This document shows, one piece after another, positions 9,201 to 58,500 of a stretch of DNA of 64,000 nucleotides. The position numbers and the translations under genes are program-made. The notes below the pieces were generated by a model that worked only from the letters and a program-made list of their open reading frames with translations, did no database searches and was not told the origin of the DNA. Source of the stretch: Styela clava (lineage: Eukaryota); assembly GCF_964204865.1 (NCBI RefSeq), contig NC_135252.1:11718001-11782000 (forward strand), written 5' to 3'. Every line of letters starts with the position of its first letter. The stretch's first letter is position 1.

Positions 9201-12200
9201 AGTAGAAGCAAGTTGAATTGTTGATAAACTTTTCTGCAAAATAAAAACAAATCAAAGGCTAATGCTAATTTAGATCATTATTTTATTTTAGAACCTGTAC
9301 CGGATTATGGCGATTATACAGCGCCATCTACTGGAGAAAGACTTCCTCCTGGTAAGACTTTGCTGTAACTTATCTACTGCTGTAATGCATATAAAAAGTA
9401 TGGACTACCGGTAGAATAACAGTTCCAACAGGGTGTATTAACAATTTTTGCTATCATTTCAAGAGTCAAGGTTGATAATTTATTCTATGATTTTATCAAT
9501 CATCATTGGTGTATGCTTTCAGTCCTTCAATTATTGGTTTAAAAGTTCACTTTCTGTAATCGCAAGCACCAAGTATATGATAGAATATTAATAAAAAGCC
9601 ATAACTTGAAATTATTGTGTTTTTCAAATATGTTCAGCTACTCCTACAACATTGTGTTTATTTAGATGCGTCAGTAACATGCCCATCCATCATTGCACCA
9701 GAGCGTGGCGTAATGGAATGTCTAAACGGGAATGGCATTGGATCTATTTGCCTCTTTACGTGTGATGAGGACACAAATATGGAGGGTAGTGATTCGATTA
9801 TATGTGACGCTGATGGAGCCTGGAGTGCAGATGTGCCATATTGCGTCCGTAAGTTAGATTTCCCTGAAACGTAATTCTAACATATGGGGAACTTAATATA
9901 TACTTATGAACTTTCGTATACAGTGTTTTATTTCATTCAGTAATTGAAGATGTCATAATCACAGTTTGTGAATAGTATATCAGTAAAATTTTTCTCACTA
10001 CACAAAAATATAAATTAATTAAACAAAATTTATTCGGAATTTATTTTTGAATCAACTAAATATATAGTCGGAATAAAACTGTTAATCATTTGATATTACG
10101 CAACCATTTAATACAGGAATATATTGTCAACCTCACCACATTACTCTTGACAACGGAGGTGTAGATTGCACCGACAGTAATACTTTTCAATCGGTTTGCA
10201 TGTTTACATGCAACGATAGACACACGATGACTGGAAGTAAATCTGTTATTTGCCAGAAAAATGAATCCTGGTCAGATCCAGCACCTATGTGTGAACCAGG
10301 TAAAATCAAGACATTTGGTTTAATTTTTGTAATATAGGTTTTGTTTCGGAAACTTGGAATCCCAATGTACATGAAGCGCTAACTTAACAGTTGAAGTGAA
10401 ATATGTATATATATCCACACAATTGTCGTAACGCAATGAACTGAAACCTAAAGTATGTCACGCCGCGGCCAGAAAAGATCTAATTGATCGACTATCAAGA
10501 AAGTATATGAAAGAAGCAAAAGCTTGAAGTTGTAGGTATAACCGTGTCACACACACATTTGAAGAGAGAATATATATATATATATAACTATTTTATCTTC
10601 ATATTTGATGTACTTCATTTGAATTACTTTTTCATTAGATCCCGTAAACTGCGAAGAAGAGTATGGTGATTGGTCTGCTTGTGAAAACGGAAAACGTATT
10701 AAAGAAAGTGTCATGATTTCGTCGTCATCAACATCAGTCGTGTGCCCTGAAATTGTGGAAGGTCTGTTTCAAGCAATACAAAAACGTGTTAGAAAATAAC
10801 GGCGTTTTCAGATGCGATTCTTCCAATTGCCTCGAGTTTTTCTTTTTGCTGCAATTACTTTTAACTTTCTACTTCGTTCATTTGTTTATTGTTTGTTTTG
10901 AATCTCTAGATTGCATCAACTGTGAACTTGACTGGGGTCCCTGGGAAGAATGTGATGATGGAGTGAGATCACGCACTCAGTACGTACTGAAGGAGAAAGT
11001 AGGGGCTGGAGAGGACTGCCCGGAACCAAAAGTGTCACAGCAACGTATGTTGCTATACCTCATGGTTTTATGTATAATTTAAAATGAGAATATATTCATA
11101 TAAACAAGTAGATGCCACTTTGGTATGTGATTTCAGCTGTTGTGTGATTTCAGTGATTTTAGTATCAACCTAACTCTAGCCCAACGATGGCAGGGTTGGT
11201 GCCACATTGGTATGTGTTTAATATTCTAAAGACATTACCATAGATTTCATTTCCCAGCCATAATTCGAACTAAAATCCCTGAGATCACACACCCGCAGAG
11301 ATTGCATACCGAAGTAGCAACAATAAATATACTCAGCAATTATATGTATATTGTGGAATGCTATTCTTGTTTCAAATTTCAAAGAGGGAAAGTTCACCTG
11401 ATTGATCTGCCAATTCTACTCGCATCTTCGACGAAAATTTTATATGACCCTTAGTTTATGTCACATGATAAACTAGATCTGTTTTGTTGAATTTGCATAT
11501 ATGTTGTTCTGTAATTTATTATTACAGAATGCTTCGATTGTGTTATTGAGTGGGGAGAGTGGTCAACATGTTCAGGAGGGACTAGAACTCGATCACAGTA
11601 TGTGAAAGTGACACCTGTAGGAGGTTCTGAATGTCCACCTCGAGAGACGGAAACACAAGGCAAGTTAATATTTATATTTCAAGAGTTACTCAGTTCAGTC
11701 GCAAAATTCTATTTTAGTTTGTTAATTACTAAGATCTGATTGCTTAATGATATTTTGTAAATGTTTGTTTATCCTCGATTTTCTGCAGATTGTGTCGATT
11801 GTGTCGTTGAATGGTCTGAATGGTCCGATTGCTACAAGGGTGAAGCGGCGAGAACGCAATACATAACACAAGCTGCGGCCAACGGAGGAAAAGAATGTCC
11901 GTTATTAGAACTTGAAAAAGAGAGTATGTGTATTCTTATTGCTTATATTTCATTCATTAGGACGTGAACATATCTACAGTCATTCTTATTGAAATTCTTA
12001 TAATTTTTTTAATTTTTATTTAACATTAAAAAGTGTACAATAAAGTAGAAGTTCCTTTTAAAATACATGTGCGCACCGGTTATATGTTTTATAATTACCA
12101 ATATTTACTTACAGATCATGGTAGATTGTCTTACATTGTCACACATTCACATTTGTTAAGATGCAACAATATTTAAAACTTGTATCAAATTAAATGTTCA

Positions 12201-15200
12201 TAATATTTTGTATGTGTACAGAATGTACAGACTGTGTTGAGGGATGGGGTGAATGGAGCACATGTACAGATAACGTCAGCATAAGACAAGAGATTATTCT
12301 TGTTGAACCTGAAGGAAGAGGAAAACAATGTACTGAACTTCTTCAGTCGGAAGAACAAGGTATGTGGCCACGATGATACAGAAATAATAATGCTTAGTCT
12401 GAATCATTAAAACAAATCGTGAAACAATTTAGCAAGCTTTTATAACGTTGATATACTTGGATGATATAAAAAGAAGAGGCAAAGCGAAAAATCAGGATGG
12501 TTTTACATATATCTTACTTTTGTTCCACTTTGTGATTCGTTAAATCAATCCTTCAAATTTAACAGGACAATCTTTATACTTTAGTTTATCAACATTAAAA
12601 ATTAATCATAATAAAAATAATTTAAAATTATAGTGTTTTATTTTTATACAGCATCTAAAGTAAGAAAATATGAGTTCTTCCTATTACAGAATGCAGGAAT
12701 TGTGAAGTTGCTTGGTCTGACTGGGGCGAATGTGAGGCAGGTGCGAGAAGCCGACAACTTGAAATTATATCTCCGGCGATTGGAAACGGAGCTCAGTGTC
12801 CTCCTGGATTAGACGAAGAAACTGAAGGTATGGCCCAAAAGACATTGAATATCCTTTTTTTTCGTTTTTTTCATTGATCGATTATTCAATCGCGGGTTAC
12901 ACGTTCAATGAAACTTTGTCATTCCAAAAATCCAGTTTGTCAAATGGTATCTTGCCCTAACTTATTTTACCGCATTGTATTTTAACAAATGAACAGAATG
13001 CGTACATTGCGAAATGGAGTGGGGAGATTGGGGAGAATGCATAGAAGGTCAACGTCAGAGAACTGAAGTTATAGTTGTTGAACCAAGAGGAGCAGGAGAT
13101 CCCTGTCGTTCACCAAATTCTGATTCTAAGAGTAAATATTACAATTTTTTATAGCAAAAATTTACCTGAGTGGTGCAACAAAATTATAAATAACAATAAT
13201 ATTTTATTTGTTTAAATCACTGTGAATACTTCTGTTTTATTGGTTTTCAATTAAACTTTCAAACTCAGTAGCTTTAGTATCAAAGTATAATACGTGTGAA
13301 TAACACCACCAATATTCAGATACCCTATACGGTACCCTAATTTGAAAGTCACTTTAGGCAAAATGCGTATAGTAAAAATATCTCAATATATTTTGAGCCA
13401 AAAATTATAATCATATAGTTATGGTATCGTTTTTTAAATACATTGAAATAACAGACATTGTTTTCAAAATCGTTTAAAACCTACCACGATGTCATACAGG
13501 TTGTGCCAAATGCGAGATATCATGGGGAGATTGGACAGTATGTGAGAATCAAAAGAGGGAAAGAAAACAGTTCATCAGTCAAGCACCTTTTGAAGTTGAA
13601 GAACCATGCCCCGAACTTGATACTGAAGAAGAAGGTGTGTCAGGCCGTTGGCTGAGTGTTCACACTCATTAATGGATATGTTTCATCAATACTTTTCTAA
13701 ATAAAAAGAGTCATTTGTCAGAATTGTATTTTAAAAATAGGGCTACAATACGAAAAATTGAGGAACTCGCCTCGAATCTCAGCGAACGAGAAAATAACAA
13801 TATGGCGGCCATTCGAAATCTTTGTCTGAACCGATTCGAATAATTTACTATTCGACGCGAATATTTGTTTCAAAATGCCCAGCCCTATCACGAACACAGT
13901 CGATTGTAGTTGATGTCATCAGCTAAAAATCAATGTCAGTGGGACTTTATCGACTCTTTGATTTGTAATAATTTAGGGAAAACACCAAATCACATCAGTA
14001 TTAATGCACATTTTACAGCTTGTATTGACTGTGTATCGTCCTGGGGTCCGTGGGGCGAATGCTTGAATGGACTACAAGAGAGAACTTTGATTATTGAAGA
14101 AGATCCAGTAGGTGCAGGAGAAGCTTGCCCAGAAGAGAATTATGAAGTTCAAGGTGAAACTTTTACGTTGGCAATTGACACTAGGATAGGGTTGAATTTA
14201 CAATTATAATATTTATCTCGAGGGAGAGGAAATCCGATGGACAGCTTAATCATATGACGAACCACGGCCTCCAGTCCGGTTATACCAGTCCATGTCGGAT
14301 ATGAGATTAGTTAGCCGATTATTTGTTTTCCGAAGCATGGCATGGCACTGAAAATTTAAATAACGACTTCAAATTCTGCAGAGTTTTCCTCGACTATTGT
14401 TTTGCAGTTTTACATTAGTTGGGTGTTCATAGCAACTTTGTATGTATTTATTTATAAATTAGTAATTTTGCATTTTACATAGAGTGCTGCTTCTATGAGT
14501 GGGGTGAATGGAGCGAGTGCGAAAACGGCGATAGAACTCGAAATGAACAAATTGTTGTCCAACCACAAGGGGAAACTTGTCCACCAGGGAAACAGGAATT
14601 TGAATGTAAGTTAAACCAGGAAGATAGTAAGTTTCGAAAAAAATTGTGACGATATTATGAGAGTTTTTGCTGCATGTATTTTTGTAGTTTTTTTTCGCAT
14701 TTTCCGCTGTACAGATCATTTTTCCTATTCATTATATTATATTCTGATAATTTGTTTTTAAGGGATACAAGCCTATTTTAAATTTTTTATACGAAAGCTT
14801 TTTCAATGAGAATTGTTTTTTACAATTCAATTACAATTTTGATTATTATGGCGTAAGCGTGATAGTTGAATACTCATTTAATTTACCAGTAGTTTATTCG
14901 CCCTACATTTTTGGTACACCTGTATATAATAGTTGCTATGATTATACCGTCCTAATATTGATTTACCAGCACCCAGGGTAAATAATGCAAAAACGCTGCA
15001 GCCGATATCATATTACATTACGTGAAGGATTGGAAATTATGAAATGAGTATTTTTTGAAGATACATTTCACAATTCCTTTAGCATGCGTTGACTGCATTG
15101 TGGAATGGGGACCTTGGGGTGAAGAATGTATAGATAACACCGTGTTTAGATACCAATTCATAAAGCAAGCCCCAGTTGGAGCCGGAGATATTTGCCCTGA

Positions 15201-18200
15201 GCTGCAAATTGAAGCTGACTGTAAGTGATTATTTTGCTCTATATCGAGGGAAATTTTAAAATGGCTGTTGAAATTTGATAACTTTTTAGGTCAACTAATT
15301 CAAATATGATCAATAAGGGTTAAAATGGGCGGATTCGAGCTGCGGTTCATGATGAAATTTCAGTTCAATCCAGAATTCGTATAAATGTTTAGATTCAGCT
15401 AGAGTTCATAAATTTCAATTCAATTTATTGGACTGTTTGCGCTCGCTTGACAAATTCACAATCTCCCATTTAGAATTCAATTACTAAGAAATAAAGATAA
15501 CTAAAGTCGTGTTCTATTCATACATCAAGTCTTTGCTATAATTATTAGTGTGCGCCAATTGTGAGGTAGAGTGGGAGCAATGGAGTGAGTGCGTTGATAA
15601 TTACAGAGAGCGATCTCAAGTCATACTTGTGGAACAAGTAGGAGCAGGAAGCCCATGTCCAGACTTGGAATTTGAAACCCAAGGTAAATCACTTTATAAT
15701 CGTTTGTTTCGCATTTGGCGTTCATAAATGAACATTATGGTTGTTTTTTCTGCATACATCTAATCAAAAATCATACATATCTGTTGAATATAGAGACATG
15801 CGCCACCAACGAATTTTTCAGTACTCTCCAAGTCTTCAAATATACTGATTTCTTCAATTCTGTCATGATATTTTGGTCTTTATCTCCGATGAAATTTCAT
15901 TGAATATAGTGGAAATAATAGTCGATCTATCTCCGATTGTTTGATAGAAAACGCATACTCCAAAATTTATATATATGCGTACATTTGCAGAATGCGCTAA
16001 CTGCGAAGTCGAATGGTCAGAGTGGAGCGAATGTGGAAATGGAAAAAGAAGTCGAACACAGAATATTGTTGTATCAGGGTACGGAGGAGGAAATCCATGC
16101 CCAGTTTTGCAGGATGAAGAGGAAGGTGGGTACAAAGTTTTATTAACCTGGGGCTCGTACTAATGTCACTAATAGAAAAATAACAGAATTTTAATTCGTC
16201 GTATATTTTTTTGAAATAAAGATTTCACCATGATCACTTTCACTTCAAATGAAAATATATTTATTGTAATTTCAGACTGTGTCGACTGCGTTGTGGATTG
16301 GAGAGAATGGTCAAAATGCGAAAGTGGTTCACGAATACGGGAAATGTACATCAAAGTAGCCCACGTTGGCTACGGAGCGGAATGTCCACCCTTGGACGCA
16401 CAACAGGAAGGTACATAATTTCACAATCATATAAAAACTGATGGTTTTAGGAAAAGTTTAGGTTGTGTACTTAAGAACTTCATCACTTCACTAAATTATG
16501 AATAAGCATTTTCGATCGAAAAATATTCGACATATTCCATCATTTTTGCAATTCTTATTGCAGTTTGTGCAAATTGCGAAGTTGATTGGTGGGAATGGAG
16601 TGAATGTAGCAACAACATGAGATCGAGAAGACAATATGTTGCTGTTGAGGCATTCGGTGGGGGAGAATCATGTCCTGAATTAGAAACGGAAGAGGAAGGT
16701 TTGTTCGATATTTATTGGTAATGGTAACCCTCAAAATTTGGACTTTTAATCAATATAATCTTTGCTATTTTTAACAATTTTAAGAGTGATATCTTTAGAT
16801 CTACAGCCAAAGAAACCAAGTTCAAATATAGCTTGTTCACCCAAATATTTATTACACAAATTTTATTAGCTTGCATTGACTGTGTTGTTGAATGGGGACC
16901 ATGGACTGATTGCTTCGGTGAATTAAGGACAAGGAGGCAGGAAATAGTTGTTCCTCTTGTTGGAGCTGGAAGAGAATGTCCACCACTAGAATCTGAGACT
17001 GAAGGTATTCATGTGGTTTCGTATTCAAGAAATAAGTGTTCGGCAGTTGTAAATCAATACCTGCTGAGCAAAAATCTAATTTTTAATTGCGGTATGATAG
17101 CTTCTTCAATTGAATGTTGCTTTGTTTCATCAACGACATGAATTTTATTCGGATAATGGAGCTTCATTGCTTATATTCCTAAGCATGGGTTTCCAAGCTA
17201 ATATAAGTTAATTTTTACTTAATATCTCCAATAACCGACTCGCAGCCATTAAAAGTTTATTATTATGATGCAATAAACTAAATGGTATTTAGCGAGTGAT
17301 GAGAGTACACAGTCTAAAAATCTTCAATTGACTAACTTCTGGCTGAACGTATGTCCTTTGCTATCCGATTCCCCAGATCTCGAAGTTCCAACAATGGGAA
17401 CGCGAATAAGGGTTTTTTACGTTTCATACGTTCAGGTTCGAAAACAAGATATCGTCTGTTTCTGTTTGATTTTTTTTTTAAACGCTCGAATTTGTACATA
17501 TTATATTTAGTACAAATCTTTAATTTCTCGTGTTTATGTCAGTCATTCCATTATGGCGTGTAGGATTTATTCATATAATTTATGTAGTAACATTCGTTTG
17601 ATATAATACGCTAGCTTGCATCGTTCCTGGATCCAAAAAAGCACTGGAGAAAACTATTTGCAGATTTACTGAAGAAGTTCTTGGTTACAAGAAAAATCAT
17701 CGAAAGCGTGATCTTCTTCTGATTGGAGATGAATCAGGAAGTATTGGTTGGGTGAACTTTGCCAAGATCAAAGAAAACTTCAAAGTAAGTTAAATTGGAA
17801 GTAAGTTAAAGTAAGTAATTTGTGCTGACGTTTCATGACAGTGATCAAACTTGAAAATGTAATAGGGTTTGGCGCTGGAGCCCGGCTCTCCGGGGCCACT
17901 AGCTTACCATTCCTGATAAAGACTGTGAATTGAACGTTTGGTTCAGTTTATCAAACTTCTTTAGCTTTGTTGGAATTAAAAATGTATTTTATAATATTGT
18001 CACCAAGAATCTGCGATATGTTATCTATGATTGATTTCGACAAAAAATGTGAAGATAATAAATTCCTAGATTTTTTATTCCGTGAAATTTCGGCATGAGA
18101 TCCAAATCAAAATTAAGCAGTGCCAAGTCCCAAGGCGACTTTCCATGAATCGACTTTAGTGAATAACCTTGGTAGTTTACGAATCCAGCTTATTCAAAAA

Positions 18201-20221
18201 TGAAAGTGATTATTATTTTTATAAAGTGTAGATAATGCTTTTTTATTTTTCATTCGTGGTGAAAAATGTAAATGCAAAAATTAAAACATAAAGACCCATT
18301 TTAAACAACTTTTTGGGCCTAAAATGACTTGAAATTAATTTAAAAGAGACTTTTTTCCTAAATTTCATACTATGGTTCAAGTCGATTTTACAAGTAGGCC
18401 CCCACCAAGTAACGAAAACGTCATCAAAACGGACTTTCTTTACCAAAAATAATGAACGTTGCTTCTGTCACATTCTAAATATCTACGATAGTAGATACAC
18501 ACAGTTTCACACTACAACAGGCCCAAATGACTAGCACTAAATTTTTCTGTAGTAAAGACGGCATCAAATGGTGTCCTAGCAAAATATTGATATCAATGTT
18601 TCATTTGAAATTTTTCATTTCTAGACTTTATCGCCACCTAACTGAATTTTTCAACGTCCGTTACCAATGACAGTACAACGTTGGTGACCACATATGGAGG
18701 CCTATTTGTAAAATCGTTTTCAACAATAGATCGAAATTTAGAAAAAAAAAAAAAAATTGTTGTTAGGGTGTATCTTATTGCTACCGGAAAATAGCCTTTC
18801 TCCACAGCGAATGCATCAATTGTTTTCAAATTTGCAGTACTTTGCTAGAAAGCTATTGTTCCATATTACCTAAATTCACTTTCACTCGCAATTCTGCGGT
18901 ACGACTGGGTCCTTTTACTTTGTGTGTTTTGAAGGAGGGGTGCCACGTTCAGAAAAGTATGAAAAGGATTTTTGCGTTTCTATATTTTAACAATTTCCCC
19001 CACGTACTTACAGGCGATCGCCCGAAATATTAGAGGTGGAATTGGATCGGAAGAAACTCAGTTGGCAATGACTTCATTTGCTCGTTTTAGTCGCACTTTA
19101 TTTGATTTTGACGATTTTGATAATGCTATTGATGTCGTTGCTGCAATTGATGAAGCTTATTTCCTCGGTGGATATAGATCCAGAATAGGAGATGCACTAG
19201 AAGATGCCAACCGTTGGCTTTTCCAGCAGACTGGAGGTTTGTCGAAGGCATTGATAAAATCATTTTTAACATTACTCAATAGGTCTTAACAATTACAATA
19301 AAAACAATTTAATTATACTGCCCGGCATGCTTTACGTCGTAATATGTCTTTTCCTAGTGAAAAAATTGTTTCCACAATCAGAAATAACGGTTTATCCAAT
19401 AAAAACTATATTCTAATTATGCTTGTACATACTAGTAATTGAAATCACGGGCAAGACAAATTCATCAAAACAAACGCAGTGACTTGCACGTGATAAAATA
19501 AGGTCACGTGAACAGTTGCAGCTTCACTCTGCAAACCCTGCACACGACACCCAGACAATATATATAAAAAAAAAACTATAAAACAGCAAAGCAGTCCCAT
19601 CCCAATATAATTAATTTCTCCAAGTTATTTTGTAATTGTATTTTTACCTTCAAGGAATGCGAAGCTTTCCCAATATTGACGACAGCATCGAACACGAGCT
19701 TCTGATTGCAACTGACGGATGTCGTACCGCTGATAAGTATATGCTGCAAGAGGGACTGAAAACAATCAAAAAACGTGGAATAAAGGTATTTTAAAGTAGT
19801 TGCAACTAAGCAAAATATTTGTAAATATACCCACTGCAACGTTAGATTTGTTTGAACAGAAATATGGCCTAATCATATTGGGGTAAACGATAACGCATTG
19901 CTTTCTTCAACATAGCTGTACGTATTGGGAATTGAGTCGAAGGATAAGCGTTGTGCCGAAACAGTAGAGTCAATGGTGGAAGACAAAAATAACCTGTTTC
20001 AATTGGGAAGCTGGGAGCAACTAGACGAATTGAACAAAAGATTAGAAGAAAAGGTTTGTATCACCAGCGAAGTTCGTGTAGATGATAGTGACCGTCGGGG
20101 AGATGAAGGAACATCTGAAGGAGACGCAGAATCATCTTTCATAGGCGACGAATTACCACCCGATGACGGAGTTGAACCCAGTCCGCTGAACGATGGATCT
20201 CGTCGTGGAGACGGAGTCTAA
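3207..20221 (+). CDS. Large multi-exon extracellular mosaic protein: SEA-like + acidic DY linker + 2x CCP/Sushi + 16x TSP1-like + vWA + RGD tail (>=1344 aa; 5' end not resolved)
   Basis: Phase-consistent exons read by hand: 3207-3277, 3536-3646, 4400-4462, 4871-5033 (SEA-like: DLSDIDSEDFKAEALTVQQE..SLRSVGS), 7717-7785, 7910-7972, 8335-8430, 9292-9351 (acidic, DY/PP), 9666-9848, 10117-10299 (CCP: C..C.F.C..C...W....P.C), 16 phase-1 exons 10639-17004 (CxxC...WxxWxxC...RxR...G..CP), 17615-17784 (DESGS MIDAS), 19014-19236, 19655-19785 (IATDG), 19916-20221 (stop TAA). AATAAA at 20241. No start codon or signal peptide exon identified with confidence; 2672-2704 is a candidate upstream exon. Confidence 0.9.
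5421..6961. mobile_element. ~1.5-kb foldback (almost fully palindromic) element nested in the TA-flanked element
   Basis: Termini TATGGTGGCCCATCGTTGTCACGCG / CGCGTGACAACGATGGGCCACCATA with a 6-bp TSD CACCAG (5415-5420, 6962-6967). The arms pair up to a ~20-nt loop at ~6221-6240 and include A-rich and T-rich tracts. Confidence 0.88.
5521..5649. other. Assembly gap (N run)
   Basis: 129 Ns inside the A-rich arm of the foldback element. Confidence 1.
13738..13887. mobile_element. Small degenerate MITE
   Basis: TAGGGCT...AGCCCTA termini and internal TTCGAA repeats; no TSD. Confidence 0.4.
14225..14345 (-). mobile_element. SINE 3' fragment
   Basis: Reverse complement of the CCATGCTTCxGAAAACAAATAA...GGTTCGxCATATG core seen at ~23020-23110. 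Confidence 0.8.
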
Positions 20222-35181: not shown

Positions 35182-36281
35182 ATGGATATCACGATATTTA
35201 TAAGGATTATTATAATTGCGATTACGTTCACATTCGTCACTTCAAGCCCGGTTCTTCAAGTAAGTTTTTTTTAATTATTTTTGGTGTTTTGTGTTTAATT
35301 AGTTACGATCATTAAAACAAATGTTTACAAAGCATTATGCAGTACAATGACATAAGGTTTTAATTACGTTAAAAATACCAAATGATGAGTTACTAAAACA
35401 AAACTAGTCGACTGAAGATATTTCACATTGCATACCTAATAAAAACATTGTTCTAATGACACACCTCTTTTTCAGCATAAATCTTCAGGGATGCCACATT
35501 TATTGCGCCGACTCCTTCACAGCTATAATACTATGCCAAAATCTGGGGAAGTGAGTCCGGAATATTATGTATCGCCTCCAAACGTTATGAGAAGATACCG
35601 AAATTACGATTGGCAATATTACGATGGCAGAAGACAACACAAAAGGCAATCGGGATTAACACCCAGCCGATCAGGAAAAAGGTGAATACATTTTTATTGC
35701 CTTATTCCAAATTTGTTTTATAAATTGTTTATCGCACGAATTGTAAATCCATTGAGTTTATTTGGGAAACTGTAATAATAGAAGTCAAAAGACCTGCGGT
35801 CTAGTATCCACGCCCTCTAACTTACTTACATTATACATTTTACGACTACACACTTTGTGAGCACCCTAGTAAATGGATATAAAATATTATGAGTTGACAT
35901 CTATTACTGAATTATACGATCCAAATTTATTTCCACAAAATATCTGTTTAATTGATTTATTTCCAACGAGCGAAACTATATTTTCTAAAATCACTAAAAT
36001 GCGCGAAGTATAGCTTTAAATGTTATATGAAATCTTATGCAGAATTATGATTTTCACTAACCCTAGCAAAAATATTAGAAATAATCTCAAACTTTCAAAT
36101 ACCTTTCACTATTACAGTATTCATTAAATTTTATTTTTTGTTTAGAACGGTAATATGTGCAAAGAACAAGCGCGGTCGATGTGTCGCAAAGTGTGGATTC
36201 GGAGCACCTTTGGATCAAATATCGAAGAATATGTTTTTTGGTTGCAGACCAACGTTAACATTCCGGCATCAGCGAATATAA
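35182..36281 (+). CDS. Secreted peptide precursor 1, natriuretic-peptide/osteocrin-like (139 aa, 3 exons)
   Basis: Exons 35182-35259 (MDITIFIRIIIIAITFTFVTSSPVLQ, signal peptide; donor GTAAGT), 35476-35681 (pro-region with RR/GRR/KR/GKR sites; phase-2 donor GTGAAT) and 36146-36281 (RTVICAKNKRGRCVAKCGFGAPLDQISKNMFFGCRPTLTFRHQRI*). TATA box upstream and AATAAA at 36959. Confidence 0.85.
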
Positions 36282-39212: not shown

Positions 39213-41722
39213 CTAAACATGAGGCAGTTTCCTCGTTCTACATCCAAATCCAGTGCTGAATGAGATGCGATCAAGAGGCACATTAAATGGACACGTCGTG
39301 ATGCGACATTTTCCTTTCCTCTGACATGAAAGTCGAGCCATCTTTCGACCACTGTAAATAGAATATCGGCATTTAGAAACTCAAATTTTTTTTTTCTGGT
39401 ACCTACAAAAAGCAATGTAAACAAAAGCATCCATTTGTTTCCTCGACTATTTTCAATTTTTGTTACTCGTGTCGATACGAGAAAAACAAGCGGTTATATG
39501 GTATATCGGTGCATAGCAAAAACAGCTTATGTGTGATGATAGATTATAAAAGTCATGTTATAAACAGACTTTGTTCAATCTCTAATGAACTGGACCTCTA
39601 ATCACCCAGCAAAACCCTTCAGGGCAATTAAAAATTGTCTCGACATATTTGGAGTAAAAATGACAAGCGTCCAACATTACAGCACGCGATGACCTGGTTG
39701 ACAGCAAACGTGTTTTTCGATGATCGTCGATTAGATCTATCAAGTGTATTTTCTTGTCTTGTTTATCGCATAAACGATTTGTGGCATTATGTCTCTTTAG
39801 ACAAAATTCAAAAATTGAAATTTTATGGATGAAATGTGCAGATTGCGTGCGATTGCCCACACGCTTACCACTTATGTCACAAAGATCAATTGCGGGATAA
39901 TTAGTCACAAAAATAGGTCCATGAAATCGCGTAATGATGATTATTAAAATTGGTTGCATTTTTCAAAAAACGGATCATAAACTAGGCGATTAATGCGCTT
40001 GTCGTATATAGACTTTTCCAAGTGGCTCGGAAAACTTTTCACTTTCTATATAAACAGACAAATTTGAAAGCAATGGAAGATAATTGGAATCGCAGATGTA
40101 ATAAAAAAAATGATCAAGAAACAATAAGTAATGCTCCATCAGAATGCATGTCCAGCGAATCAGTTACACGAGAGATTTTCAATTTGAATATATGGAAACT
40201 AGACTATTAGTTTTAAAAATAATTCTAAATGTATGAAATAAGCGAGTAATACGAGCGAAGGAAAGCACAAAAGTATTAGTACAACGATATATTAAAGTAA
40301 CACAAAACTGAATTTAAATTCAATAGAACCTCCATCTTACTTTCTCAATCCTCTCTTTACGTGATGTTTGCTCTTAAGTCTTCGACTTTCTTCTGAAGTT
40401 ATGGACTTATCTTCGAAAATACTTCTGAAAAACTCTGGAAAAAAAAATACATTGAAGAAAATGTCGATGATAAGCAAACCGTAAACTGGAACATTATTTT
40501 TATATATGTTTTTTCGTTTAAATTATAAATTTAATTTTATAGGTAATCAGACCATTCAGATGATCATACCATTCTTGGTAAATTATATTACGAACGAAAG
40601 AACGAACTTATGGTTACTGTTGAACATCATCAATTTAAAGCAAATTAAGTTCGTGAATAATATAGGACTCTTATTGTCTTGAAAAATCCATTTAGTAGTT
40701 GTCCATTCAGTTCATTCCATTTAGTCCATTTAGTATAGTTGTATCAACAAATATGCAGTTGCAGCTTATAGAGGAGAAAACGCTGCAATGATTGGATTCG
40801 AGTGAAATCGTCGGGATTTCCTCGTTTAGAATGAAATTATAACTGGATTAAATTCTAAATATATATAAATATTTACCTTTGTGAGGTACAAGAGCTTCGA
40901 GCATTTTTAAATCTGATAAAAATCCTTGAAATATTATGATGTATTCATCTGGATCCCCAGAATGTTCATTAATTTCAAATTTTCGTAAATTTTCAAATTC
41001 TTCTGGCAAAGTTGAAGCAAGATGGCGACTGCTTGTTGGTAACGAACTCACGAGTGTTGAAATCTGACAAAAATTTAGAATAATTCTCAACAATTCATTC
41101 TTAATGGCTAAAGTATTAAATCGATTTGGAAACTTAGTTGTAAACAGTGCGATTGGCATTAGTAAAAAAGCGAAATTTTTCTCTGTGTTTTCAACGACCC
41201 GTCATCTTTCTGTATTTTCGATGGAAAGGGAGAATGGCATATGAATTTGATTAATGACTTTTCTATAAAACATGGTTTCCACTATTTATAGAAAAATATG
41301 GTATATAATAATAACCGAATTTTAACTCATTAAGCACTAACGAGCTTTCGCGGTGTATCAGCATTCTCTCATATCACCAAATGTAAAGACAGTCATTTTA
41401 CTCATGTCCAGCAAAATCTACTTGGTACACCAAACTACAATGTACTTAGTTTCAAAAATATACATCGAGCCGTGTGTATAGTTATCTACTGAAGAGTATT
41501 GTACGTCAAAACTCTTCACGTTTGCTGTTATTCTCGTCCCGTCTTTCAGAAATATATTTAATTGTGGATATAAAATATCTCCTCTTTCTTATATTTATCA
41601 ATATATATACATGTATTATCCAGTATTCCTCTCACCTGAAGTATTAGAACGAAGTATATTGATGAAATCATACAAGAGTATGATATAGTTGCTCGAAAAC
41701 ATATAACGCTTGATATCTTCAT
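39213..41722 (-). CDS. Secreted peptide precursor 2, natriuretic-peptide-like (168 aa, 4 exons)
   Basis: Exons 41722-41636 (MKISSVICFRATISYSCMISSIYFVLILQ; donor GTGAGA), 41063-40877 (ISTLVSSLPTSSRH...VPHK; donor GTAAAT), 40434-40341 (EFFRS...KHHVKRGLR; phase-2 donor GTAAGA) and 39351-39213 (NGRKMARLSCQRKGKCRITTCPFNVPLDRISFSTGFGCRTRKLPHV*). All phases are compatible. Minus-strand AATAAA at ~39120-39125. Confidence 0.87.
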
Positions 41723-47791: not shown

Positions 47792-48417
47792 GTTGATGGG
47801 CGATAGATTTATTCAATTACTGTTTTCTGTTTTTTTGGCCTTTGTCTCTGTCTGTCCAAGAGGGGGATAAAGCTTGAACGCTTCAACAAACATTGGTTTG
47901 CTTGGGATAAGTCTGACCAAAGCTGCGTCACCAGATTTTAAATTTTTTTTAATCAGCTTTCAGTATCTTATGTCCATCCTTTCTTTCAAATCAGCAAACT
48001 TGAACGCAATTTGAGCTGCATGCCAATAAAGCGCACGGGGTACATAGCCACGACAAATTTGTCCAGCACAGTTCAAGACTGTGACTTGAAATTTGAAATC
48101 CGAAACTTCCTGAGCGGGAATTCATTTTGTTAATGCCATCTACATTCCCTCTACGGATATCCTTTACAAATACATTTTTGACAATAAATCCGACACTATC
48201 ACCACGCACAGACTTGTGATGCATTTCCACAGATTCACCTTCGATACTGATGTTGATCGGGGCGAACGACACGTATCACAGTTCCAATACCTCAATCTTA
48301 AAAACATCTTGAAGAGCCAGACAAAGAGGCTTGTCAGTCGGCCGAAATGGTGCTCAATATTGTCCAAGGCTTCGGAAAGACATTTTGCTTTATCATAACC
48401 ACTTGAGCATTCATATA

Positions 48418-54244: not shown

Positions 54245-55575
54245 CTATGAAAGAAAATGTCTTAATGGACATCTAAGAACATAAAAAAAAATATATTGAA
54301 ATCATTTCAAGTTTCAATTCCCATACATTGCAAAATAAATAGTATAATTCAAATATTGATTGAAATTTCAAATGACCCAAACACGAATAAACATAAAAGT
54401 TCAGTCTCATTCTGTAGAATGAATATTTTATGTTCCTTCACCTTTGAGTATTACAGTACATCTCGGGTGTCATAATTTCCAATGCTGCTATTGGTGTCTC
54501 AACATCAAATATTTATCATCAGAGAAACTCAACATTTTTAAGTACTTGGCCAAACAAAGAATGAATTTCAAATAATACTTGCAAATGAAAATTTATTAAT
54601 AGCAACAGAGACGCTAGTTTATTACAAAGACGCTAGTTAAAACAATATACACATTATGTATTATATGGACTTATCGAAACTTTAAGAAAAATCCAAAATA
54701 TTTACGAATGACAGCTATTGCGCAAATCAGCCACTGCATATATAAACGAACAACACAGCCCTTTTTTAGAGTCAACAAACCTATATTATATTTTTGTACC
54801 CAATATTTTCAAACGGTTCTATTGCTCTACACAAAACAGTTTAATAGAATTAACATGTAGATATTACTATAAACTATCAAGACTATATTTTATAAACGCT
54901 TAAATTCTAATCACGAATTAATCATTCGTAAATATTGAACAAAGTTCAGGGCAAACATAGAAAGTCCGAGACATGCAAGTAACGATAATACCAGACTGTT
55001 GAACATCAGAAAACTTTTAGTGACAATACACAGTACTCACAGTACACAAGTTACTCAGTTTAAAAATTGAATATTGAATAAAATCGCGTAATTCAAGTAT
55101 AAAGTAATATTTTTAAATATACTTTATATATACGTATTTTCATATTATTCTTGTTATTACTTTGTGTACATATCGCCATCGAATAAATATAAAATTCTTA
55201 AAATAGGTGGATTTTGATTTATGATTTTAATTAGCAAACTACTGTGAACGTTGAGAGTAATCTAATTATAATATAGATATAATTAAAATAACTGAATGAT
55301 TAAATATAACAAAATACTGCTGAAAGTAACCCATTCAAAATATTCATTTGTTCATTTGTCTTCACTGGTTGTATAAATAATTCAACAGTTTTTATTTTTG
55401 AAATGAATGCTTGAGTTTAACTATACCAACATAAAAATATCACTCATTCCATGAATATATCTCATATAGTACATGCAATAATTCACTGGTATACAAGCAG
55501 TTCAACTGAAAATTCTTCAAATTGACCAAATGCTACAATATCGATCCATGCAACAGTTCGCATATCACAAATTAA

Positions 55576-58500
55576 TCACGATGCATCTAACCCAGTTTCT
55601 GAGGTCGAAAGACACTCATCAAAATAATTGTCCGTAAATCTCAGCATTTGTTGTAGTGCGCTCAGTGCCAGAGCATCTACCCAAGGATCAAGTTCGATTT
55701 CATGAGTGTAGTTTTTCACCGGCAAAATAAAACTCACGGGAACACCAATTTTTATGCTTGTCTGCAGTAATAAAATAAATACAAATTCTTTTGTTATTAC
55801 AAGAAGTAATGTAATCTGGTATGAGTAAAGATCAAGCATTCGCTCATTTACAATGTAGAATTGAAAAGACAAAAAGTCCGTTTCAAGATACCACCAAGTT
55901 CGGATATCTACAAAATATTCATAATCACCAAGCGTCAAATTTACCTCTATAAACCAGACACGTTTTATCACCTTGCTGGGATTGAAAAGATATGATCACT
56001 CGAATAAAAAAAAATTATTTCATTTTTTCAATTCATAAACTGTATTTATTAACTACTTGGAATCTCATATTGCTGAAAAAATACTACATTTTTCGGTAAA
56101 GTATAAAATGTTGTTAGATCAGAATATTTAGAAATAAATTAGGACTAAATACTCACCTGGGCTACAATATTTTGTATAACCGAACTTCGATATACCATCG
56201 AAACATTGGATGCTGTTTGGCTGCATGCCTTATCAATTTTAGTCAGCAGAATAATCATTGGTATACCTTGAAGTTTAATTATATATATAAGAAGCGAGAA
56301 TAGGTACGATCTACGATTGTTCCGTCCCTACTAACTTATTATGGTAAGGGACGTGGGATATCTGCGTGCGAAAAAGTGGCGTATGTTTCTAACACATTCA
56401 ATGCATTTTTAACATTACCGTACATTTTTACTCGTGTCAATGGTCAATGATAACTTGCAATTATAGTTGAAATAAGATATTCCAGGCGCTGTCGTCTTTG
56501 TTGCCATTAAAAAACAGGTATTACCTGATTTGACGTGATGTTTACGAAACACAAAATAATAAATACTAGATAAATTTGTGTTAGTCGTTGCAGGGCAATT
56601 ATATCAGTTTCGGAGATCAAAACGGTAATATAGTAGTAGTTAAAAATAGTACATCCAATAAGGAATGATATTGAAACATCACATATATATGTGTTTTAAA
56701 ACTTAATTCAAAAACTCATTTAGTCAATATGTTAGAGTGATTGGTATTGAAAAAAACGTTTTGATAAAATAAGCATAAATTCGTATTTATAATTTCATAA
56801 AATAATCAACATCCATTATAACGCAAAAATAATCACAAAATACTTCTTAATTTAGCTATAATCAAAAAGCGTACAATCTTTGCAAGGATACCGAAATTTG
56901 AAAAATCCTTTTTTACCTCTAGAGGTTATTTTCCCCCTCATGTCCGAAATTTTATGCAAAAGCCCTTCTCCCATGTTGGATATAGAATTTGCGTCCAGAA
57001 CAATAACGCAGCAATGTATCTTGTCTGATAACTTGGGCAATTTTATATAACCGTGCATTTCTTGAGAAATATTCCCTTTGTTGTCAAACTGTAATGAAAG
57101 ACAGATCTTGAAAATGTAATTTTCTAATTTTCATCACCCAGCTTTTCCAGCAAATGTCTACAAATGATAAACGCATTTCTTAATTTTAATACAAATCACG
57201 AAGTAAAGAAAAGTAGAGTAACTAGATGTAAATTCTTGTGCGCATTAGTGGATAATTCCCTTTTCGAAGCAGAGATTCAGACTGGCTACTGCAGGAATTT
57301 TTCTGGCATCTTATTACTGGGCAGTATACATGTCAACTTAATGATGTATTCACGTACTAAGCAAAATGTCAAAGAGCTTTTAAAATAAGCTTGTATTTAC
57401 ACAAAATATCAATTATTTATCGAGTTTGAAATTACGGCAATTTGAGTATAATTCAGAAGTGTGGATGCATATTTTTACCTCACGCACATCATAAATATTG
57501 CAAGAATGCCAATAACGCATATCCTGGGTAAAAATACATTGCAAAAATTTTTTAATTCCCTATCATTTCATGGGTCACACAAAATATTCATAAGAATATT
57601 ATAACATATATCAAATTACTGCCAATGTCAGCATATTACTGATTGCTGAAATGATCAAATTAAAAGCTGTGAGTTTTGCATAGAAAATGAAACATTATAA
57701 TAGGCCTACTACATGTACTATTTGTAGTGATCATAAAATGAGTATTATGCTCAGTAGAAGAGATTAGTATTTCGAGAAATAAAATGGAAAATGTGGAAAC
57801 TCCCATCATTGCCAAAGTTTGTGATTGCATCACAACAAAGTTATATCACAAAATGAGTTTGACTCATATATACCCGGCTAGGTTTTGACTCAATTCAGAA
57901 TAGCCCGAGGTCGGGTTATAAACATATACTCATTGCGGACTGCGTCTTAGTAAAAAAAAATGGCCAGGCTACGTTCACATTGTAAATCTTCCACCATTAG
58001 CGTCATATTGTTTTTTACAGTCAAAAGGAAAGTTTCTTGCAAACTTTTTGAAATGTCACCAAGAACGTTTTCTTTTGCAAATGTGATGTCTTCACCCAAC
58101 AGTTCGGTATTTATTACCAGGTGCCCACTAAGAATGAGGTCCATCGGCAAAAGATTGCATAGCTCAGCTTATGTTATAGACGCTACCACAGGTTATGGCT
58201 ATAAAAAATCTTATATATTGCATGGGATATTGTGGAATTCCGTTCAACCGAACTTTTCCTGATTGCGTTGAATTTGATCAGCATACCTACCCCAAATGAA
58301 AAACAAACGATACAAACTTGGTGATTTTCGGGTACGTGTCCATCCAGGATGTATGGCAATTCCGATGGATCGAATCCTTGTTTTCTTTCTTCTTCAAGAC
58401 CCATTGTGTCGACAATACGAAAATTAAGGACTTTTCCCTCTCTACCGTTACGAATTTGGTATGCTCGTAACTACAAGTAAATAACAATATTGATATCTTT

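Follow-up and report, generated by a model that had tools for sequence, protein, structure and literature searches.

A conserved four-cysteine peptide precursor family in ascidians with likeness to natriuretic peptides and osteocrin

The window analysed here (the whole stretch of 64,000 nucleotides from Styela clava contig NC_135252.1, positions 11,718,001 to 11,782,000) holds two small paralogous genes that lie tail-to-tail, ~3 kb apart. Once translated, their GT-AG exon models are identical to two database entries, P0001 (LOC120343090, 168 aa) and P0002 (LOC120342433, 139 aa), both labelled "uncharacterized". In each gene a phase-0 intron follows the signal exon and a phase-2 intron immediately precedes the mature peptide. 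No third copy turned up in protein-level searches of the genome. Gene 1, on the plus strand, is built from a first coding exon with a predicted signal peptide (35182-35259), a prosegment exon with RR and KR sites (35476-35681) and a last exon (36146-36281) which encodes the predicted mature four-cysteine peptide and the stop codon, reading TVI-CAKNKRGRC-VAK-CGFGAPLDQISKNMFFGC-RPTLTFRHQRI-stop. In this exon the small loop Cys1-AKNKRGR-Cys2 occupies 36156-36182 and an 18-residue ring similar to that of natriuretic peptides (NPs) occupies 36192-36245. Gene 2, on the minus strand, has a hydrophobic first coding exon with a predicted signal peptide (41636-41722, ATG at 41722 and a second ATG at 41671), an acidic prosegment exon (40877-41063), a third exon with the end of the prosegment and a KR site, HVKR-GLR (40341-40434), and a last coding exon (39213-39351) which again encodes the predicted mature four-cysteine peptide and the stop codon, ...ARLS-CQRKGKC-RITT-CPFNVPLDRISFSTGFGC-RTRKLPHV-stop. 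Its small loop Cys1-QRKGK-Cys2 lies at 39306-39326, and its NP-like ring of 18 residues, Cys3-x16-Cys4 with F-x4-DRI-x4-GFGC, at 39240-39293. The window contains the four-cysteine spacing twice, where 60 shuffles gave 0.08 on average; the ring pattern, itself derived from these sequences, matched twice, and not once in 100 shuffles. A sequence-only reading of this DNA had described four cysteines in each mature region, with CQRKGKC (gene 2) and CAKNKRGRC (gene 1) standing just ahead of the ring and a dibasic pair in each small loop; all of this holds in both genes, the linkers to the ring being 4 and 3 residues long and the pairs RK and KR, respectively.

Expression was checked in eight runs presumed to be RNA, although none of the runs listed is recorded as such. 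The splicing of gene 1 matches its model, with both joints, one at each end of exon 2, recovered in five of the eight runs from two studies. For gene 2, the joint between exons 1 and 2 (41636-41063) was seen in one run of eight (X2), which also partially covered exon 2, exon 3 was covered in none of the eight, and the last exon was covered in three; the later joints, including that from exon 3 into the last exon, were recovered in 0/8 runs, and in two of the three covered runs (X1 and X3) the contigs continue unspliced past the acceptor at 39351. The exon 3-4 joint is taken from the database gene model, and the last exon as modelled is plausible since the acceptor at 39351 is the only AG in the right phase downstream of an in-frame stop at 39381-39383. 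A second in-phase acceptor lies upstream at 39402 (minus strand); splicing to it would extend the frame by a few residues to a stop ahead of the peptide, so that the gene 2 precursor would lack the peptide. Runs X10-X12 had no real cover, and all four coding differences seen in the runs were synonymous. Elsewhere in the window, a gene of several exons at ~10700-20200 (plus strand) encodes a VWA domain and several thrombospondin type 1 repeats, and a short piece similar to elongation factor 1-alpha (E 0.039 to Pfam EF-Tu domain 2), perhaps a decayed copy, lies at 47994-48275 (minus strand). Exons at ~55500-58500 (minus strand) appear to resemble interferon-induced protein 44-like genes; three frames scanned there gave no Pfam match.

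Relatives were sought among 1.84 billion representative sequences with a profile built from both mature regions. Of its six matches two were the queries themselves, three were relatives and one, a bacterial repeat protein of 1532 aa (P0005), was dropped as a chance match. The relatives are Clavelina lepadiformis LOC143447357, Ciona savignyi H2ZIK8 (P0006) and a Logan record, P0003, which is close to gene 1. Styela clava, Clavelina lepadiformis and Ciona savignyi together span the three ascidian orders. Word-based protein searches returned the two S. clava proteins alone, a profile that included the prosegments matched designed armadillo repeats and was discarded as chance, and a degenerate ring pattern run over metagenome contigs hit four loci, none with an upstream cysteine pair or a precursor-like frame. 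All four cysteines are kept in 5/5 sequences with the spacing C-x5/7-C-x3-5-C-x16-C, and the glycine before [KRE]-Cys2, F, D, S and FGC likewise never vary. Compared pair by pair, the mature region proves conserved in all ten cases (z 10-30), the prosegment in only two. All five precursors have a hydrophobic stretch at the N-terminus, as judged by a hydropathy scan rather than a signal-peptide predictor, and a dibasic site ahead of Cys1, at 2, 3, 5, 6 and 22 residues before it; the peptides carry a predicted net charge of +7 to +11. Judged from these comparisons, the gene 1 and gene 2 peptides are a real, conserved ascidian peptide family. The sequence-only reading would have given up the extra, N-terminal cysteine pair had it proved unconserved, and the pair is instead invariant in all five sequences. 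Its upstream HVKR|GLRN in gene 2 stands in the gene model, although the Asn codon spans the exon 3-4 joint found in 0/8 runs; the likeness it drew between GLRN and the GLSK start of CNP-22 looks coincidental, GLRN lying 13 residues before Cys1 and being found in none of the other four sequences.

How the four cysteines pair is suggested by their spacing. The small loop holds 5, 7, 7, 7 and 7 residues over the five sequences (gene 2, 5; gene 1, 7) and the linker between Cys2 and Cys3 holds 4, 3, 3, 4 and 5 (gene 2, 4; gene 1, 3), whilst the spacing between Cys3 and Cys4 is 16 throughout. A fixed Cys3-Cys4 spacing next to a Cys2-Cys3 linker that varies, as the connection between two modules would, points to two rings arranged one after the other, and on this pattern the peptide is likely a single bicyclic chain. 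In two AlphaFold models short strands flank the small loop, and in that of gene 2 they fall at residues 2-5 and 9-12, which at low confidence would put Cys1 opposite Cys2; mean pLDDT values of 57 and 47 make this weak evidence for a small-loop hairpin, and the models do not give a disulfide map. Were the cysteines instead paired crosswise or nested (1-3/2-4 or 1-4/2-3), no NP-type ring would form and the peptide would be a compact fold, tied by its disulfides and exposing an osteocrin-like motif, an arrangement consistent with a large-ring spacing that differs from that of NPs and with osteocrin, which binds NPR-C through NP-like motifs (PMC11291853, as far as its accessible text goes) and has no cysteine in the sequence printed in the available part of PMC10220261. 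We consider such pairing unlikely, as the Cys3-Cys4 spacing is invariant while the linker before it varies, the register from Phe to the last Cys is identical to that of BNP, and the hairpin predicted in both low-confidence models would bracket Cys1 and Cys2.

The sequence-only reading had offered either two rings or a cut inside the small loop; the spacing favours the two separate rings, whereas the cut fares poorly against the relatives. A loop dibasic pair is present in two of the five sequences, both from S. clava, when 1.3 of five would be expected by chance (the sum of the shuffle chances, which are 0.20-0.31 per peptide in peptides that are 21-24% Lys+Arg). P0003, the closest relative of gene 1, has RS at the position of gene 1's KR and an RxxR ending just before Cys2, the Clavelina loop is without a dibasic pair and that of C. 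savignyi, VMNQSGE, is without any basic residue. A conserved convertase site between bonded cysteines, as in insulin-like two-chain processing, was thus present in the loops of only 2/5 sequences, a lack of conservation which leaves a two-chain or latent form unsupported; loop cleavage is thus no conserved mechanism, though it may occur in S. clava alone. A small loop cut at its basic site to give a disulfide-tethered two-chain hormone or latent pro-form would account for RK and KR occurring in both S. clava loops (joint chance ~0.06, 0.20 × 0.29), for some convertase-like motif in three of five loops once the RxxR of P0003 is counted, and for the RK of gene 2 sitting in what the model predicts to be a turn. 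We nevertheless hold it to be most improbable: besides the count of two against 1.3 expected and the Clavelina and Ciona loops, the pair is not the same in the two paralogues, and with Cys1 bonded to Cys2 a cut would leave a "second chain" of no more than a few residues. Convertases also need an extended substrate, which a disulfide loop of 7-9 residues hinders. The linker between the rings might be cut instead, which would split the product into an NP-like hormone with the usual single ring and an independent small cyclic peptide; every one of the five linkers has a basic residue, and in C. savignyi P0006 an RR at residues 130-131 directly follows Cys2, where a cut would separate the rings. 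This too is very unlikely, with a dibasic pair in one linker of five only, and the invariant G-[KRE]-C together with dibasic sites upstream of Cys1 in 5/5 suggests that the small loop belongs to the mature product.

We then asked what the large ring resembles. A profile of all five sequences searched against 177,635 PDB sequences placed BNP first, a modest match (E 0.008, ungapped over 21 columns), and natriuretic peptides made up three of the top four rows, with TIMP-2 at E 0.032 as background; among the nine PDB matches no chain was named ANP or CNP. NPs are defined by a 17-residue ring, C-x15-C, with the consensus CFGxxxDRIxxxxGLGC (PMC9502559, in its accessible part). The ascidian ring is C-x16-C, 18 residues, in 5/5 sequences, and four cysteines, not those of a single disulfide, lie in the predicted mature peptide of all five. 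The form of the precursor agrees with that of NPs in 5/5, a predicted secreted prepro-precursor (by the hydropathy scan) with a C-terminal peptide behind basic sites. At the internal positions of the ring consensus (PMC9502559, same portion) gene 2 matches 6/8 and the other four 5/8 each, the DRI position reading DQI in gene 1 and DTI in P0003; per 1e7 residues, ~0.01 matches of 6/8 and 0.33 of 5/8 would be expected by chance, figures computed from general amino-acid frequencies and allowing, post hoc, a ring of either size. Pfam scans of the five precursors and the two mature regions gave no ANP (PF00212), no Musclin (PF11037) and no other relevant family, and the Pfam ANP model run over the genome did not find the locus of the two genes. 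The best genome match to that model was a frame reading CFGDKLDRLAC-stop on another contig (L003, ~1500-1550; G000:C2:14929914), which at E 0.65 is below the cut-off and probably chance. The Musclin model matched nothing anywhere, and the known controls were equally silent. With an 18- rather than 17-residue ring and no Pfam match, the peptide is not an NP by the strict definition; it does look, and probably works, like one.

Candidate receptors are present in the same genome. P0009 (contig C13, locus L009) is an NPR-C orthologue, with E 3e-63 to NPR-C vs. 1e-36 to NPR-A, and contig C9 carries at least one NPR-A/B-type receptor, in which ANF, kinase-like and cyclase exons follow one another in that order, as well as a second, more divergent receptor. 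P0009 also has a ~50-residue insertion in its ectodomain (residues ~144-195), absent from the NPR-C alignment, which holds an RRKR furin-type motif, so that this NPR-C-like receptor might itself be nicked. Modelling the gene 2 peptide together with two P0009 ectodomains gave a score of 0.00, which counts neither for nor against binding, as the controls did not fold, the alignment was unused and peptides fall outside the calibration. MTHFR and DIS3L2, neighbours of the vertebrate NP genes, lie on contigs C4 and C18 and the peptide locus on C3, so that neither of the two neighbours compared shares its contig. The absence of synteny support, of a Pfam ANP match and of any NP E-value better than 0.008 would all fit a tunicate-specific cationic cysteine peptide, acting in defence or on some other receptor, the NP likeness of which is chance or convergence. 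The net charge of +7 to +11 fits it as well, the sole ESM Atlas feature match is a beta-defensin-like cluster (0.75, below the noise level), and invertebrate look-alikes have been argued to be convergent (PMC6878697, in the section available). This explanation is improbable in our judgement, given only two copies in the genome, strong conservation across distant ascidians, an F, D-x-[IL]-S and terminal G-C that fall in the NP register, and the NPR-C orthologue. Defence peptide families evolve fast, unlike the conserved ascidian peptide.

The balance tips slightly towards a single-chain bicyclic ligand of natriuretic-type receptors that belongs to a conserved ascidian precursor family, a reading built from sequence comparison. 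The exon at 39213-39351 encodes the C-terminal four-cysteine peptide of a small, ascidian-conserved precursor, which we infer shares homology with NPs and osteocrin, is likely secreted and would be cut at basic sites upstream of Cys1 to give one chain of ~42-44 residues. Under Cys1-Cys2 pairing G-[KRE]-C would close a short beta-hairpin, most likely left uncut as a structured, cationic N-terminal cap, and Cys3-Cys4 pairing would make the receptor-binding ring; the two-ring peptide would then likely act on natriuretic-type receptors, through cGMP signalling or by binding NPR-C. A further step, to which we give an even chance, is that ascidians keep a pre-vertebrate member of the NP/osteocrin group, a bicyclic peptide whose 18-residue ring encloses an osteocrin-like core and which serves the orphan NPR-C and NPR-A/B-type receptors of tunicates as their endogenous ligand. 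If so, the ligand-receptor pair predates vertebrates, and the single 17-residue ring and the ring-less osteocrin would be later simplifications or variants. Receptor binding, if true, would mean that a ring of 18 residues can be accommodated and that a disulfide hairpin at the N-terminus belongs among the natural designs of NPs, one not found in the literature searched.

The significance of the locus rests on this possible pre-vertebrate NP/osteocrin ligand more than on the basic residues of the loop. NPs are treated as vertebrate in the accessible parts of PMC1868935, PMC10725132 and PMC13311285, and PMC6878697, as far as available, holds that NP homologues are confined to vertebrates and that the ligands of invertebrate NP receptors are different ones, as yet unknown. 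Of the 10 candidate peptides of that study, the one from Ciona is described as part of an enzyme and is probably not of the gene 1/gene 2 family. C-x15-C peptides have been reported from jellyfish, leech and centipede venom transcriptomes (PMC12343078, portion available), so that with these and the cobra venom peptide Nk-NP-I of the same source both invertebrate look-alikes and a second cysteine pair have precedent. The available parts of PMC3873703 and PMC8742412 added nothing on extra cysteines in NPs, and we found no description of a tunicate NP-like precursor in the full-text literature searched, a body outside which most subscription journals fall. A conserved precursor family and a clear NPR-C orthologue in the same genome make the question of an invertebrate NP ligand directly testable.

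Set beside ANP, BNP and CNP, the ascidian peptides share the small prepro-precursor, the C-terminal cysteine ring after basic sites and the F-x4-D-R-I-x4-G-x-G-C register, with the distance from Phe to the last Cys equal to that of BNP without a gap, and with BNP they also share a short basic C-terminal tail. They differ in the 18-residue ring, in the second conserved cysteine pair N-terminal to it, in a ring end of FGC rather than LGC and in an intron directly before the mature peptide. Guanylin and uroguanylin are two-disulfide ligands of a receptor guanylyl cyclase, GC-C, with crosswise pairing; they differ from the ascidian peptides in sequence, cysteine spacing, pairing and receptor, and matched in none of the searches. 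The Thr and Pro positions of a Bowman-Birk-type inhibitor loop, C-x7-C, are absent, and that reading was rejected. The C-x7-C-x3-C of gene 1 (36156-36194, plus strand) and P0003 has the spacing of three endothelin cysteines, probably a coincidence, as no search supported a link. Nk-NP-I is an NP which likewise has a second cysteine pair outside the ring and a suggested second disulfide (PMC12343078, in the part available), but it is a venom peptide with a 17-residue ring, and its extra pair, C-x1-C, sits in the C-terminal tail instead of forming a C-x5/7-C loop at the N-terminus (same part of PMC12343078). Osteocrin (musclin, OSTN) binds NPR-C, not NPR-A or NPR-B (PMC11291853, in excerpt), and has two motifs and no cysteine, whereas the ascidian peptides have one motif and four cysteines. 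The stretch from Cys3 aligns without a gap on the first osteocrin motif (PMC10220261, in the portion seen), with 6-7 of 11 positions identical by a count made by eye and an osteocrin Ser opposite Cys3, and this ungapped alignment means that the extra ring residue after Cys3, which departs from NPs, fits osteocrin.
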